Below, in pieces: positions 15,398 through 20,442 of a stretch of DNA of 64,000 nt; within the stretch, counting starts at the first letter, position 1; every line of letters starts with the position of its first letter. The notes beneath the pieces were generated by a model. The model ran no database searches and was not told where the DNA came from. It saw nothing but the letters and a program-made list of their open reading frames with translations. The translations under genes were made by a program, and so were the position numbers. This DNA comes from Clostridia bacterium (GTDB lineage: Bacteria; Bacillota; Clostridia; Christensenellales; CAG-138): positions 8,535-72,534 of the forward strand of contig JAFXVP010000030.1 of the NCBI GenBank assembly GCA_017524445.1. The letters run 5' to 3'.

Positions 15398-15937
15398 TCA
15401 CGCGTTTTCCGGCGCGAGCGTGATCCAGTAGCGCTGCATGATCCCGCCGTCCGCGCATACGATCTCGTTTTCGAGCACGCCGCCGTTCTTTTGAATGGCT
15501 TTTGCGGAGCCGACGTTGTCTTTATAACAGGTGACGAGCACGCGTTCGATCCCGAGCTTTCTGCACTCGGTCAGCGCAAGGCGAAGGAGCTCCGTGCCGT
15601 ATCCCTTCCTGCGCTCGCTCGGACGGACGCCGTCGCCGATGTGCCCGCCCTCCCGGAGGAGGAAATCGTTGAGATAATGACGGATGTCCACCGCGCCTAA
15701 AAGTCGGTCGCGTTCCCCGTCCAACAGGAAGAACACCGAAGTCGGTACCCTGCCGTCTTTCGGCTCTTTGAGTTCCAGATGTGCAAGATAGAAATCAAAG
15801 TCGTGACAGTCGTATTTGAAGATCGCGCCGGGAGAACGATCGGTGTGGTTTTGTTCCTGATCGGCCTTCCATTCGTCGATCATCTCCCCGAGCTGCTTTT
15901 CATATGCCCTCGTCAGCTTGATCAGTTTCAGTCCCAT
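15398..15937 (-). CDS. GNAT N-acetyltransferase
   Basis: 3' end of the 807-aa ORF; GGHIGDGVRPSERRKGYG, NVGSAKAIQKNGG; GGAGG before ATG 15937. Confidence 0.88.
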   Translation of the reverse strand: MGLKLIKLTRAYEKQLGEMIDEWKADQEQNHTDRSPGAIFKYDCHDFDFYLAHLELKEPKDGRVPTSVFFLLDGERDRLLGAVDIRHYLNDFLLREGGHIGDGVRPSERRKGYGTELLRLALTECRKLGIERVLVTCYKDNVGSAKAIQKNGGVLENEIVCADGGIMQRYWITLAPENA

Positions 15938-16023
15938 GTCCGTCCTCCGTGCCTTTTTACGTATCATACCACACATACGCCGCCGTGTCACGGTTTTCCT
16001 GTCATAACACAACCACGCGTCTA

Positions 16024-16052
16024 TTGAAAACCGCATGCATGCGTGATATACT
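16024..16052 (+). promoter_or_regulatory. SigA-type promoter
   Basis: TTGAAA-17 nt-TATACT with extended TG. Confidence 0.65.
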
Positions 16053-16105
16053 GATGATTTGAGCGATGCGCCGGAAAAACGGCGCGCACGAAAGGAGAAA
16101 CCCGT

Positions 16106-17809
16106 ATGAAGTTTTCTGAAATGCCTTACAAAAGGCCCGATCCCGACGCCGTTAAAGCAAAGCTTCAGGAGCTGACCGAACGGCTGAAAAACGCAAAGAG
16201 CTTTGAGGAAGCGAAAGCGGTCTTCCTCGAAAAAGAGGAAGAAGAAAAGGTCGTCGACACGATGGGCACGCTCGCGTACGTCCGGCATTCGATCGATACG
16301 CGCGACGAGTTCTACGACGGCGAGATTGAGTTCTGGGACGAGATCGGACCGGAATTCGAGGAATACGAGCAGGAATGGCTCGAAGCGATGCTCTCTTCGC
16401 CCTTCCGCAAGGATTTCGAGGCGGAGTACGGCGATCTTCTGTTCGTGAACGCCGAGATGGACCGCAAGACCTTCTCCCCCGAGATCATCGAGGACATGCA
16501 GAAGGAAAATGAGCTGACCACCGAATACGCAAAGCTGATCGCGTCCGCACAGATCCCGTTCGAGGGCGGCGTGTACACGCTGTCGCAGTTGACGCCGTTC
16601 AAGACCGACGCGAACGACGGCCGCCGTCTTGCCGCGTGGAAAGCGGACGGCAAATGGTACAAGGAGAATCAGGAGCGTCTCGACGCGATCTATGACGAGC
16701 TCGTCCACCTCAGAGATTCGATGGGCAAAAAGCTCGGATACGGCGGCTATACGCAGCTCGGCTACTACCGCATGGAGCGCAACTGCTACACGAAGGAAGA
16801 CGTCGAAAAGTTCCGCGCCGCGGTGCAGAAGTACCTCGTGCCGCTTGCGGACAAGATCTATAAGAAGCAGGCGGAGCGGCTCGGAAAGTCCTATCCGCTG
16901 TCGTTTGCGGACGCCGCGCTCGATTTCAGAAGCGGCAACCCGCGTCCCGTCGGCACGCCGGACGACATCCTTGCGCAGGGCAAAAAGTTCTATGACGAGC
17001 TTTCGCTGGAGACCAGCGAGTTCTTCCGCACGATGCTCGACGAGGAGCTGATGGACGTGCTGTCCACCGAGGGCAAGGAAGGCGGCGGCTATCAGACCGA
17101 GCTTCCGCTGTATCAGCGTCCGTTCATCTTCTCGAACTTCAACGGCACGCAGGGCGACGTCGAGGTCATCACGCACGAGGCGGGACACGCCTTTGAATAC
17201 TGGATGAACCGCACGCGCATTCCGATCGAATATTCCTGCCCGAGCGCGGAAGCGTGCGAAGTGCATTCGATGAGCATGGAGTTCTTCGGCTGGCGGAACG
17301 CGGACGGCTTCTTCGGTCCCGACGCGAGAAAGTTCCTGTACAGCCACCTCTCCGGCGCGCTGACGTTCATCCCGTACGGCACGATGGTCGACCACTTCCA
17401 GCACGTCGTCTATGAAAAACCGGACATGACGCCCGCGGAGCGTCACGCGGAGTGGAAGCGGCTGCTCGGAATCTACATGCCGTGGATGAAGCTCGACGGC
17501 GAGATCCCGTTCTATTCCGAGGGCGAGGGCTGGCAGCGGCAGAGCCACATCTACGAAGTCCCGTTCTACTACATCGACTACTGCCTGGCGCAGACGGTCG
17601 CGCTCGAGATCTGGGCAATGATCCAGAAGGACGAAGCCAACGCGTGGAAGCACTATATGGCGTACACGGTGCAGGGCGGCAGCAGAACGTTCGTCGACCT
17701 CTTGAAGAACGCCGGACTTACCACGCCGTTCGACGAGGCGTGCCTTAAAGAGGTTTGCGAGACCGCGAACGCATGGCTCGAAAGCTTCGACATGACCGGG
17801 ATAGAGTAA
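16106..17809 (+). CDS. M3 family oligoendopeptidase
   Basis: HEAGH zinc motif, EVHSMSME, HIYEVPFYYIDY. Confidence 0.93.
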   Translation: MKFSEMPYKRPDPDAVKAKLQELTERLKNAKSFEEAKAVFLEKEEEEKVVDTMGTLAYVRHSIDTRDEFYDGEIEFWDEIGPEFEEYEQEWLEAMLSSPFRKDFEAEYGDLLFVNAEMDRKTFSPEIIEDMQKENELTTEYAKLIASAQIPFEGGVYTLSQLTPFKTDANDGRRLAAWKADGKWYKENQERLDAIYDELVHLRDSMGKKLGYGGYTQLGYYRMERNCYTKEDVEKFRAAVQKYLVPLADKIYKKQAERLGKSYPLSFADAALDFRSGNPRPVGTPDDILAQGKKFYDELSLETSEFFRTMLDEELMDVLSTEGKEGGGYQTELPLYQRPFIFSNFNGTQGDVEVITHEAGHAFEYWMNRTRIPIEYSCPSAEACEVHSMSMEFFGWRNADGFFGPDARKFLYSHLSGALTFIPYGTMVDHFQHVVYEKPDMTPAERHAEWKRLLGIYMPWMKLDGEIPFYSEGEGWQRQSHIYEVPFYYIDYCLAQTVALEIWAMIQKDEANAWKHYMAYTVQGGSRTFVDLLKNAGLTTPFDEACLKEVCETANAWLESFDMTGIE

Positions 17810-17829
17810 GAAAGCATTCAAAGAAAGCC

Positions 17830-17871: not shown

Positions 17872-19587
17872 TTACGCTTCCTTCGCCGCGCGTTCTTCCA
17901 ATGCGCGATAGTCGACCTTGCCAACTTTTGTGTGCGGATAGTTCTGTATAACTGTAAATGAATCCGGACGGTACACTTCACCCATTTTCGACTCGCAATA
18001 GTTTTTGATTGATTCAATTGCTTTTTCCGAAGAAAGAGACTTGTCTTTCAAAACCACATAAGCGTGAGGCGCTTGACCCAATTTCGCTGTAACCGGCACA
18101 ACCACACAGCTTTCTATCATTGGGCATTTGACCAAATGACGCTCGATATCAGGACAAAAAATCTTTTTTACCCCATCATTCCAGTAACGCATCAAATAAC
18201 GTTTTAACCTGCCTTCAATATGGATAAAACCGTCTTCATCGATAAAGCCCAAATCGCCGGTGTGTATCCATGTTTTCCCATCCGCATGTATTCTGGCGAT
18301 GTGTTTTGTTTCTGCTTCGTTATTCACATATCCCCACATCATTGACGGAGTACAAATGCATAATTCACCTTCTTCTCCGATTTTCTTTTCTTCCTGCGTA
18401 TCGATATCAAAAGCAGAAACAATATTTTTCACGAATGGTATCCCTACGGTCCCTTCCTTGTGGATTCTAACATTATTACAGGAAACAGCGGCGCATACTT
18501 CACTCATTCCGTATCCGTTCATAAGAGGATACTTGCTGCCTTGTTTTTGTAAGTATTCATTCACTTTCCTTTCAACCGGAGCCGGCAACGTGTCTCCTCC
18601 ACTAATCGGCTCTTTTAGGAATGACATATCCACATCTTTTCTTGATTCTGCCAACTGATTCCATGAATCCGGTCCGCTCATAATATGGTTCGGCTTAAAC
18701 TTTGCCAATTGATAAATAGTGTCTGTCATTGGTAGACGAAGATGAATCTTTATGCCAACCATAAGCGGGATTTGGAGAGCACATGATACCCCATATGCAA
18801 TAAACATCGGTAATACTTCAGCCCAAGTATCATTTCTTTCAATGTCTGCGCCGCCATGAATATACTGCCATGCGGTTGCAACAATATTGAAATTTGTTAA
18901 AGCAACCCCTTTTGATCCGCCTGTAGTTCCTCCGGTATAGACGATTGCCGCAACATCTTGAGGATTGTGATTTACAGTAAAGGTGTAGTCCCTTTTCTGC
19001 ATAAACTGATTCCATGAAACGAAGCGGTCGTCTTTTACGAGGGGTACAGTTTTTTGTTTCTTGAAGATTGTCGCCGCAACCTGAAATGTGATCGCCATCG
19101 ATTGTTTAAGGTTTGCAACAATCACTCTTTTAATTTTTGTTTCATCTATCAAATGGAATAATCGATCTTGAAAAATGTCGAGAGTAAACAACAGTTCCGA
19201 ATTGCAAAGATTGATGTCATGCAGCAATTCTTCTTCAGGAGAAACGGGACAAAGAAGATTTGCTATTGCCCCTATCTTATTGATTGCGTACATCAGATAT
19301 ACTGTTTCAGGCGTGTTCAGCATGCAAATTGTTACAGTATCCCCACGCTTGATGGACATTGCGGTTAATGCTGCCGCAACATCATTCACCTTTTCAAAAA
19401 AACGTTTTGCAGTAATCTTGCGACCATAAAACTCAAAAATGACTTTGTCCATGTATGCTTCGTTCCCTGCAAAAGCAGCTTCATACATCGTACATTCCGG
19501 CAACGATGTATTGATTAATTCCTCGGAATAATATTTGAGCCACGGCTTGTCGATGGACGGATAGCCCGTCAGTTTTGTCTTCTCCAT
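17872..19587 (-). CDS. Class I adenylate-forming enzyme (acyl-CoA synthetase-like)
   Basis: YTGGTTGGSKG, GYGMSE, HTGDLG, GKVDY motifs; GGAGG before ATG 19587; interior is AT-rich. Confidence 0.92.
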   Translation of the reverse strand: MEKTKLTGYPSIDKPWLKYYSEELINTSLPECTMYEAAFAGNEAYMDKVIFEFYGRKITAKRFFEKVNDVAAALTAMSIKRGDTVTICMLNTPETVYLMYAINKIGAIANLLCPVSPEEELLHDINLCNSELLFTLDIFQDRLFHLIDETKIKRVIVANLKQSMAITFQVAATIFKKQKTVPLVKDDRFVSWNQFMQKRDYTFTVNHNPQDVAAIVYTGGTTGGSKGVALTNFNIVATAWQYIHGGADIERNDTWAEVLPMFIAYGVSCALQIPLMVGIKIHLRLPMTDTIYQLAKFKPNHIMSGPDSWNQLAESRKDVDMSFLKEPISGGDTLPAPVERKVNEYLQKQGSKYPLMNGYGMSEVCAAVSCNNVRIHKEGTVGIPFVKNIVSAFDIDTQEEKKIGEEGELCICTPSMMWGYVNNEAETKHIARIHADGKTWIHTGDLGFIDEDGFIHIEGRLKRYLMRYWNDGVKKIFCPDIERHLVKCPMIESCVVVPVTAKLGQAPHAYVVLKDKSLSSEKAIESIKNYCESKMGEVYRPDSFTVIQNYPHTKVGKVDYRALEERAAKEA

Positions 19588-19597
19588 TTCCCCCTCC

Positions 19598-19629
19598 AAA
19601 ACAAAAAGTGCGCAGCCGGAGCCGCGCAC
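19598..19629 (-). terminator. Intrinsic terminator in the leader of the acyl-CoA synthetase gene
   Basis: Minus strand GTGCGCGGC-TCCG-GCTGCGCAC-TTTTTGTTTT immediately 5' of the RBS. Confidence 0.75.
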
Positions 19630-19652
19630 GAAAAACGCAAGCTCCTTTTTGC

Positions 19653-19777
19653 TGCGACACAATCATACCCACATGCTTTACAAGATGCGTGAATGAAGAG
19701 CGTACGTTTTTGCCGAACGTACACACCCTGTAAAGCATAGAAGGTGTCTATGCGGGTACCAATATGATCGTGTCGCA
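19653..19777 (-). ncRNA. Putative structured leader RNA / sRNA (family unknown)
   Basis: About 38-bp rod; all five non-Watson-Crick pairs are G-U on the minus strand; lies between a SigA promoter and a terminator. Confidence 0.6.
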
Positions 19778-19783
19778 AGATGA

Positions 19784-19812
19784 ATTATATCACGGCGGAA
19801 CGCGAAACGCAA
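19784..19812 (-). promoter_or_regulatory. SigA promoter of the leader RNA / acyl-CoA synthetase
   Basis: Minus strand TTGCGT-17 nt-TATAAT with extended TG. Confidence 0.75.
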
Positions 19813-19885: not shown

Positions 19886-20442
19886 ACCTCATCCGGCTTC
19901 GCTCACGCTACGCCGTACACACTCCGCTTGCGCTTCGTTTCATAACATGGAATTCGCACGCTTCCACAAGCTCCACTTCGTTACGGCGGTATGTCGCGCG
20001 TTTCTCGCGCGTAACATCGCGCGTAACACGGTGCCGTCGCGCGTCAAGTCGCGCGTCGCCATCTCTTCTCCTCAAGGAGAAGGCATTGGCTGTGTGAATA
20101 CAGAGGCTTCTCCCCCTTCAGGGTGGAGAAGCTGGCACCGAAGGTGACTGATGAGGGGGTATCGCGCGCCATAGGCGCATATCGTTCCTTCAGGAATATC
20201 GTGCCTGCAAGGATATATCGTGCCAGCAAGGGCATATCGCTTACGCATCACCTCATCCGCCTAACGGCGTATACACTCCGCTTGCGCTTCGTTTCATAAC
20301 ATGGAATTCGCACGCTTCCACAAGCTCCACTTCGTTACGGCGGTATGTCGCGCGTTTCTCGCGCGTAACATCGCGCGTAACACGGTGCCGTCGCGCGTCA
20401 GGTCACGCGTCGCCATCTCTTCCCCATCAAGGGGAAGGCATT
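19886..20442. repeat. Composite palindromic repeat cluster containing a ~170 bp direct repeat
   Basis: 19919-20087 is nearly identical to 20273-20442, separated by an inverted REP-like unit and an ATATCG hairpin chain. Confidence 0.9.

Follow-up and report, generated by a model that had tools for sequence, protein, structure and literature searches.

The leader preceding an AMP-binding enzyme gene on the minus strand of the window (the whole 64-kb stretch of DNA analysed) is a member of a previously undescribed, uncatalogued RNA family of Clostridia. Strong covariation among its relatives indicates that it is a structured RNA encoded on that strand, and the comparative evidence set out below suggests that it is probably one copy of a family of self-promoted transcription-attenuator leaders of ~150–210 nt, distributed across the class.

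Architecture of the leader

The elements of the locus, in the order in which they would be transcribed, are as follows.

19812–19807, minus strand: promoter −35 box TTGCGT, read from the sequence.
19792–19791 and 19789–19784, minus strand: TG and −10 box TATAAT, a perfect extended −10 following a 17-nt spacer.
Predicted transcript start: the first P1 nucleotide or its neighbour, with ~6 nt between the end of the −10 box and the rod.
19653..19777, minus strand: rod of 47 pairs, with P3 and J inside it.
19777–19765 with 19665–19653, minus strand: P1, from folds and covariation.
19764–19759, minus strand: internal loop UAUUGG.
19758–19751 with 19673–19666, minus strand: P2a, from folds and whole-rod covariation.
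19750–19738, minus strand: side hairpin in the rod.
19737–19723 with 19688–19674, minus strand: P2b, from folds and whole-rod covariation.
19722–19702, minus strand: P3, apical hairpin GUACGUU-CGGCAAA-AACGUAC, from folds.
19701–19689, minus strand: J, a 13-nt internal loop on the 3′ side, GCUCUUCAUUCAC, containing the decoy GCUC.
19652–19640, minus strand: linker GCAAAAAGGAGCU, with GGAGC at 19645–19641.
19639–19630, minus strand: pre-terminator UGCGUUUUUC; linker and pre-terminator make up the switch segment 19630..19652.
19629–19608, minus strand: intrinsic terminator GUGCGCGGC-UCCG-GCUGCGCAC, from a consensus scan.
19607–19598, minus strand: U-tract TTTTTGTTTT, directly 3′ of the terminator hairpin.
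19597–19590, minus strand: SD GGAGGGGG; the ATG of the downstream gene is at 19587.
17872..19597, minus strand: SD and gene for an AMP-binding enzyme of 571 aa, from Pfam.

The initial annotation had proposed a TTGCGT-17-TGnTATAAT promoter with a rod starting near +1, and both are present on the minus strand as described; a consensus scan missed the promoter because its −35 box agrees with TTGACA at only 3 of 6 positions. RNAfold of 19585–19785 recovers the rod and the terminator with an MFE of −77.6 kcal/mol, compared with −55.8 ± 4.2 kcal/mol for shuffled sequences (z −5.22; 0 of 200 as stable). The 47 pairs of the rod comprise 42 Watson–Crick and 5 G-U pairs in helices without internal mismatch, in agreement with the earlier description of a continuous rod whose five non-Watson–Crick pairs are all G-U, and the side hairpin and apical hairpin that had been drawn with it are both found in the RNAfold structure. 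The intrinsic terminator that had been placed directly before the RBS was detected by the consensus scan as a 9-bp stem with 7 G-C pairs, a UCCG loop and a TTTTTGTTTT tail, followed by the SD. The A-rich 3′ arm of P3 is also able to pair with the U-tract of the pre-terminator.

The helices of P1 and of the terminator were also seen to be nearly the same, with their order swapped. A leader-peptide reading was considered and rejected: the long TTG ORF from 19662 crosses the terminator in frame only in the window copy.

Absence from catalogues

A search of the whole window against Rfam 15 returned no match at gathering thresholds, in keeping with the initial annotation, which had recognised no T-box, known riboswitch, SRP or 6S RNA in the leader; around the site itself only chance matches to miRNA, snoRNA and CRISPR-repeat models appeared (E 2.2–9.2). 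The same search on 10 other loci of the family gave just three tRNAs and sub-threshold chance matches. No description of the family was found in the literature, including the available portions of Weinberg 2017, Fremin & Bhatt 2021 and Narunsky 2024, whose supplementary motif lists could contain the family.

Size and distribution of the family

Five copies of the leader are present in its own genome. BLAST of the leader against this genome identified three further places, sharing the promoter and P1 start together with a near-identical linker and terminator, their middles being unrelated; the window terminator recurs at three other own-genome loci as identical or one-mismatch copies, and the fifth copy, with a different terminator, was recovered by a covariance model (R1). 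As a pattern, the terminator occurs at 78 loci in species-representative genomes, all of them in MAGs of Clostridia from gut or rumen, with labels such as Oscillospiraceae, Faecousia, Ruminococcaceae and Acutalibacteraceae.

The seed of R1 consisted of three near-identical sequences from terminator-pattern loci and a hand-given structure, a choice made because MAFFT misaligned P2 and P3 and a six-sequence seed was mis-registered in P2. The model retrieves all forward copies at 60–205 bits, reverse-strand matches scoring 19–31 bits. With the own genome included in the counts, the element is carried by 10 of 28 genomes in the genus, by 16 of 151 genomes (8 of 50 genera) in a family sample, by 17 of 151 (13 of 96 genera) in an order sample, and by 35 of 151 (26 of 108 genera) in a class sample, with a maximum of 13 matches in one genome. 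Tandem arrays lacking ORFs were also found, of three copies at locus L086 and two at L029, and the class sample holds at least seven tandem pairs, 31–53 nt apart.

The canonical terminator pattern has no match among 2.9 million viral contigs, and none was found among 72,556 plasmids, which argues against classing the family as phage- or plasmid-borne. Two faecal contigs labelled ‘UNVERIFIED Bacteriophage sp.’ contain full copies (100 and 93 bits); in one of them the flanking ORFs look bacterial, judging from translations read by eye. Two metatranscriptome runs yielded 13 and 1 contigs with the conserved 19596–19663 part only, which are assigned to relatives because all run on into unlike sequence; these contigs may be DNA carry-over and are not evidence of function.

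Covariation and coding strand

Support for the secondary structure comes from one structure-blind alignment and from alignments fitted to the model. Where 80 leaders were aligned by MAFFT with no structure supplied, double-sided changes occur in 10 of 12 P1 pairs, one position reading GC46/CG28/UA3/AU3; RNAalifold recovered only P1 and the terminator from MAFFT-aligned leaders, P2 and P3 being misaligned. When 92 sequences (89 distinct) are fitted to the model, pairing is kept in 95.7% of cells and both sides have changed in 40 of the 47 pairs; among 36 divergent members the corresponding values are 93.2% and 46 of 47, with the proviso that the P2 and P3 counts rest on alignments fitted to, and hence leaning towards, the model. 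The covariation scores are 0.521 for the model-fitted alignment, against 0.169 when shuffled (0 of 500 shuffles as high) and no more than 0.042 with partners slid, and 0.541 against 0.188 shuffled for the divergent set, where 9 of 9 terminator pairs also covary. Strand preference is evident in the 275 G-U as against 39 A-C pairs of the family rods, bearing out the earlier suggestion of selection on the RNA of this strand, and in an MFE that is lower for the forward strand than for its reverse complement in 79 of 85 cases (−50.7 vs −43.1 kcal/mol).

Conservation is unevenly distributed along the leader: the sequence of P2 is free to vary with its pairing kept, and the near-invariant parts are the U5:A5 tract of P3, J, the linker, the pre-terminator and, within lineages, the terminator. 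The P3 consensus of the family, GYRUUUUUAC..YGGYAAAAAYGC, is nearly invariant, and the invariant or conserved unpaired nucleotides are AAUA, the GG of the P3 loop, the A5/U5 tracts, the CUCC..UUU of J, and AGCAA. We propose that these segments are near-invariant because each has two partners. An aptamer-type junction core is not evident. A K-turn reading of the AAUA loop was also rejected, the sequences misfitting the K-turn pattern and AAUA being base-paired in the own-genus subfamily.

Promoter and genomic position

A TAnnnT box whose end lies 2–10 nt (mode 5) upstream of the first pair of P1 is found in 115 of 118 unique upstream regions, accompanied in these 115 by a TG extension in 82 and by TTG at −35 spacing in 89; given the position of the −10 box just before P1, the RNA would begin at the closed end of that helix. 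At the other end, an ORF with an SD before it lies on the same strand within 60 nt of the terminator in 64 of 80 leaders; 8 have no called ORF, and another 8 have one only 63–230 nt away. In the copies examined, the leader keeps a single orientation towards its downstream gene.

Downstream genes

The product of the window gene matches Pfam AMP-binding (7.8e-62) and AMP-binding_C, as well as NCBIfam long-chain-fatty-acid--CoA ligase models at 1e-75, a match that falls short of the cut-offs of those models. AMP-binding acyl-CoA-ligase-like enzymes make up 8 of the 69 scanned downstream ORFs in addition to the window's own. Other downstream genes encode nine BspA-type LRR_5 surface proteins (five of them among 14 ORFs from two high-copy genomes, all five in the genome with 13 matches); five PlsC-type acyltransferases; four DUF6809 and four AbrB/MazE-like proteins; two ABC ATPases; an SLH protein, Peptidase_M23, SPFH, zinc-ribbon/TM2 proteins and lipoproteins; and small regulators of the XRE, HTH_17, HTH_59, RHH and HicA types. 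Pfam gave no match for 31 of the 69, and signal-peptide- or TM-like N-termini were seen in 28 of 72 called downstream ORFs by a crude pattern.

Taken together, these annotations point to the cell envelope, the variable surface and accessory functions as the theme, not to one metabolite or a single pathway. The initial annotation had proposed a novel attenuator, riboswitch or sRNA gating the acyl-CoA synthetase: the terminator/antiterminator architecture and the covariation bear out the broad lines of this proposal, but the specificity falls away because the downstream gene types are heterogeneous.

Alternative pairings of the linker

The antiterminator originally proposed, between the 5′ strand of the leader and the left arm of the terminator, does exist in the window copy (−12.8 kcal/mol) but is not conserved, reaching −10 kcal/mol or better in just 41 of 89 members; it is treated as unselected because the changes (G/C/U/A) at the covarying position of P1 have no counterpart in the terminator. 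A duplex between the linker and the left arm, by comparison, reaches this value in 89 of 89 members (−16.5 kcal/mol in the window). With the right arm withheld, an antiterminator of at least six pairs forms in all 89 (10 pairs in the window), as exemplified by linker GGAGCUGUGCG with left arm plus loop UGCGCAGCUUC; RNAfold chooses the linker:left-arm pairing in several members, and compensatory changes between linker and left arm are seen in L054, L051, L129, L111 and L099. On predicted pairings, the family has a conserved alternative helix that sequesters the left arm of the terminator. The terminator state is the more stable of the two by 5.5 ± 2.5 kcal/mol.

The linker has another complementary site at the top of the rod. 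This decoy, AAAAAYGCAnGCUCC (the P3 3′ arm plus J), resembles the left arm plus loop of the terminator and is complementary to linker plus pre-terminator GGAGCnnnGCGUUUUU, with a mean of −16.8 kcal/mol. Within the rod, the linker finds its best site at a constant relative position of 0.76, in the 3′ half in 114 of 118 members and near the apex (0.42–0.48) in the remaining 4. The three segments J, linker and left arm read GCUCC/GGAGC/GCUYC in the canonical form and GUUCC/GGGAC/GUUUC in the fifth own-genome copy; elsewhere they read CCUC/GAGGC/GCCUC (L054), GCUUCC/GAAGC/GCUUC (L019) and CUUCG/CGAAGC/GCUUCG (L122), and, in other families of the order, UUCCAU/UGUGGAA/UUCCAU (L145) and CUUCGC/GCGGAG/UUCCGU (L146). 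In these separate lineages the three segments change jointly.

Because J and linker residues fall in insert columns, column-wise counting of J:linker pairs was dropped, and duplex-energy tests replaced it for the J:linker and linker:terminator pairs. Linkers pair with cognate rods at −18.6 vs −16.9 kcal/mol for non-cognate ones (cognate better in 91 of 117) and with cognate left arms at −15.7 vs −14.2 kcal/mol (88 of 117), a modest advantage of ~1.5 kcal/mol for which kinship among the members means that p-values are overstated; relative to shuffled linkers, z is −2.7 for the rod and −2.9 for the left arm. The decoy:linker helix is absent from every MFE structure in which the rod is closed, and after in silico removal of the rod 5′ strands it enters the MFE of just 36 of 88 members, so that the step from P1 opening to decoy pairing is weakly supported.

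A proposed model of attenuation

In the attenuator model that we favour, an extended −10 promoter of the sigma-A type would start the RNA at the first nucleotide of the rod P1–P2, which is capped by P3 (U-tract/A-tract) and J and followed by the linker ..GGAGC..GCGUUUUU, the terminator and the SD. Comparison across the family shows two mutually exclusive and conserved partners for the linker: paired with the terminator left arm plus loop it would act as an antiterminator and permit read-through, and held by the decoy of J plus the P3 3′ arm it would leave the terminator free to form. Five segments would in this way form a chain of alternative helices, namely P3, decoy:linker, antiterminator and terminator. 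During synthesis the rod would probably close first and the linker:left-arm antiterminator form next, so that the right arm must displace the linker; the terminator would be the more stable end state.

Pairing of decoy and linker is expected to exclude a fully closed rod, because the two lie at opposite ends of the rod, the linker at the base and J at the apex, and only ~7 nt of the linker are free; the opening of P1, or occupancy of J/P3, would therefore decide the outcome. Once P1 is open, P2 and decoy:linker could form an H-type pseudoknot. Termination would be favoured by any agent keeping the conserved 5′ strand of P1 unpaired, or by a decoy supplied in trans, and read-through by whatever masks J/P3; candidate triggers are a protein, an RNA, a small molecule, or terminated sibling RNAs. 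As the terminator is more stable than the antiterminator, it may be largely constitutive.

A more elaborate version of the model, to which we give little credence, treats the leader as a portable promoter–sensor–terminator cassette. The copies of a genome, sharing one decoy/linker code, would release abundant terminated RNAs of ~165 nt that act on the nascent linkers of their siblings; the ORF-less tandem copies would be regulator genes, and one RNA-only feedback circuit would join 5–13 loci, which encode variable surface proteins, lipid-acylating enzymes and small regulators. Alternatively or additionally, the A5 tract, its two U5 partners and the U-rich J might form a U-A-U triple-helix pseudoknot sensing a global signal.

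Alternative explanations

Two rival readings also place the function in the RNA. The leader might be a stand-alone or dual-function sRNA, a stable ~165-nt rod acting in trans by protein titration or by pairing of the J CUCC with GGAG targets, sibling linkers included, its location before genes being secondary. The own promoter and strong terminator on every copy, the ORF-less arrays and tandem pairs, the leaders with a distant ORF or none, the J/linker code common to all copies of a genome and, weakly, the 13 different contigs with the conserved part in one metatranscriptome run are all in keeping with this; yet most copies (64 of 80) have an SD and start codon within 60 nt on the same strand, and a conserved, covarying antiterminator with its own left arm would be purposeless in a pure sRNA gene, which leaves the reading unlikely. 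We consider it rather improbable that the leader is a constitutive 5′ UTR, in which the rod shields the mRNA from 5′-end-dependent decay, a leaky terminator fixes low expression, and the alternative pairings are by-products of similarity. Such a UTR would account for an RNA that begins at a closed helix, for a terminator state favoured by 5.5 kcal/mol, and for the lack of both a ligand-like conserved multi-helix junction and a common downstream pathway, but not for the way in which J, linker and left arm have changed in concert in different lineages, nor for two-partner segments that are near-invariant while single-partner helices vary freely.

The regulons of RfaH, LoaP and UpxY consist of variable, accessory, surface-related genes, as do those downstream of the leader, and a start-proximal UGCGACACAA..AAUA is conserved at a fixed distance from the −10 box; a Q-like protein or specialised NusG (LoaP/RfaH-like) could accordingly be imagined to load at the P1 5′ strand and AAUA, so that the polymerase ignores the terminator, much as at phage lambda pR′–tR′ with its short terminated RNA. 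This processive-antiterminator reading is very unlikely, since the own genome (84.7% complete) yielded one NusG gene only and no specialised NusG, most units stand before single genes or short operons, and the conserved antiterminator and decoy pairings would be left unexplained. Readings at the DNA level fare worst among the rivals and can be given hardly any weight. A MITE-like repeat, an integron-attC-like hairpin, or a P1-bounded invertible segment for phase variation of surface proteins would fit the dispersed multiple copies with conserved inverted-repeat ends and a variable centre, the patchy distribution among congeners (10 of 28), and downstream surface proteins typical of phase-variable loci. 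The initial annotation had named many dispersed copies with target duplications, as of a MITE, as a refutation, and dispersed copies there are, but those of the own genome are alike only in promoter, P1 and linker/terminator, their middles being unrelated with no common P2 sequence, and across the leaders examined the orientation to the downstream gene is fixed, so that a MITE was rejected. Inversion is opposed by the position of the linker partner, 3′-sided in 114 of 118, apical in 4 and inverted in none. The same-strand downstream gene in the copies examined, forward model scores far above the reverse, the G-U to A-C ratio of 275:39, and the lack of terminator-pattern matches in viral contigs and of matches in plasmids, as counted above, further disfavour a DNA element.

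Implications

Should the attenuator model be right, an unrecognised RNA device would be at work in roughly one in four of the Clostridia genomes sampled (35 of 151), many of the carriers being uncultured gut and rumen species and often holding several copies per genome. Its targets would be variable surface proteins (BspA-type LRR, SLH, lipoproteins), fatty-acid-activating and acyl-transfer enzymes, and regulators of the AbrB/XRE/HicA type. It would constitute a new orphan riboregulator class in which the sensor helices are variable and the expression platform near-invariant, and a natural model in which to study decoy-based switching and the covariation of expression platforms; the identity of the trigger would reveal a global signal governing how major gut anaerobes compose their surface and envelope, and the compact, self-contained cassette could be used as a genetic part.

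Comparison with known systems

Transcribed palindromic intergenic repeats such as Correia, ERIC, BOX and RUP resemble the family in their dispersed copies, long RNA hairpins and possible promoter or terminator signals. Copies of those repeats are alike over their full length and lie in either orientation, whereas in the family only functional segments are conserved, the helices covary and the orientation is fixed.

The pR′–tR′ unit of phage lambda, which gives a short, constitutive terminated RNA and is subject to Q antitermination, has in common with the leaders a strong promoter, a terminated transcript of ~160–190 nt, and downstream genes expressed only on read-through. The family differs in not being phage-borne and in having a conserved RNA-level antiterminator, and the own genome (84.7% complete) yielded neither a Q-like gene nor a second one of the NusG type.

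Regulon-type riboswitches and T-box leaders likewise occur in many copies before diverse genes, with a terminator platform, covarying helices and tandem arrangements, and the c-di-GMP-I/II regulons of Clostridia include surface proteins. The family shows no evident conserved multi-helix junction and no match to their models, and a GGDEF gene was not found in the own genome (84.7% complete); compared with typical riboswitches, its conservation runs in reverse, the sensor rod being variable and the expression platform the most conserved part.

There is also a likeness in design to the Firmicutes leaders that combine terminator, antiterminator and anti-antiterminator. The pyr leaders of this kind are bound by PyrR. 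Other examples are the rplJL leader of B. subtilis, to which L10(L12)4 binds (PMC4538822), and the infC-rpmI-rplT leader bound by L20 (PMC1865079). Such leaders share with the family a three-layer choice, in which an upstream partner can hold the antiterminator segment, and an intrinsic terminator directly before the gene. The family is without sequence or Rfam relation to them and stands apart in that the partner is a decoy inside a long variable rod at the 5′ end of the RNA, and in that each leader has its own promoter and occurs as 1–13 matches per genome before unrelated genes.

Resemblance of the basal and terminator helices

The basal helix of the leader's rod (P1) and its terminator helix are near-identical in sequence with the order of their arms swapped, as read from the sequence of the window:

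within 19653-19777, minus strand: P1 helix, UGCGACAC / GUGUCGCA
19608-19629, minus strand: terminator helix, GUGCGCAG / CUGCGCAC

The alternative pairing of the leader 5' strand with the terminator left arm, proposed in the initial annotation, arises from this likeness. The terminator does not mirror the covarying P1 position, and the cross-pairing therefore looks unselected; it may have been left over from a duplication.

Flanking sequence and the second downstream gene

Two repeat features recognised from sequence, and one gene compared with Pfam and NCBIfam, flank the leader and its AMP-binding enzyme gene in the window:

19985-20052, minus-strand reading: direct-repeat array, five closely spaced ACGCGCGA copies
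about 20058-20080: inverted repeat CTTCTCCTTGAGGAGAAG, adjoining the array
15398-17821, minus strand: gene for an 807-aa protein, next after the AMP-binding enzyme gene

The array, laid out as gacgcgcgac ttgacgcgcgac .. acgcgcgat gtt acgcgcgag aa acgcgcgac, lies between pth and the leader promoter, and could serve as a set of operators through which a regulator acts on pth/mfd or on this promoter; a CRISPR-DR57 match at the inverted repeat is sub-threshold. In the 807-aa protein Pfam recognises nothing but a GNAT domain near the C-terminus, at residues about 644-780; the ~640 residues ahead of it belong to no family, and the protein has no match among the NCBIfam models.

Leader copies in other contexts

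Full leader copies were found on two human faecal virome contigs, MT835845.1 (L177, 100 bits by the family's covariance model) and MT837627.1 (L178, 93 bits), both labelled 'UNVERIFIED Bacteriophage sp.'. By-eye reading of the ORFs neighbouring L177 gives an MBL-fold/ComEC-type protein, a lipoprotein and a YicC-like protein, identities which suggest bacterial DNA within the virome rather than phage.

Small proteins recur 3' of the leader. One of 40-65 aa, with the pattern M(P/D)(N/D/K)Y(E/Q/K)(Q/E/K)(L/M)Y..(M/L)(V/F)NA..(E/D)A.. and no Pfam match, follows copies L021, L037, L071, L160 and L162, in genomes from different orders; another (MELKLELIK../MDIRLELLKK..) follows L157 and L161. A short second conserved box, ATGTGCACTAnGG, lies after the U-tract, about 10 nt past the terminator, in three leader units of a single genome, G486 (L160, L162 and L163); L159 and L164 share a different downstream box, ending aaaacccgccga.

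Within the leader's own genome, L103 (C9:27386-27446; 22.7 bits, E 0.016) is a degenerate partial copy retaining the apical hairpin P3, the 3'-side internal loop J, the linker and a terminator-like hairpin, with no clear P1. Copy L004 (C17) precedes the gene for a 138-aa protein (1572-1988; MVVMFCGHKEISEPDK..) by a gap of about 50 nt carrying no obvious SD; the protein has no NCBIfam match, and may resemble SLOG/DUF1273-type proteins.
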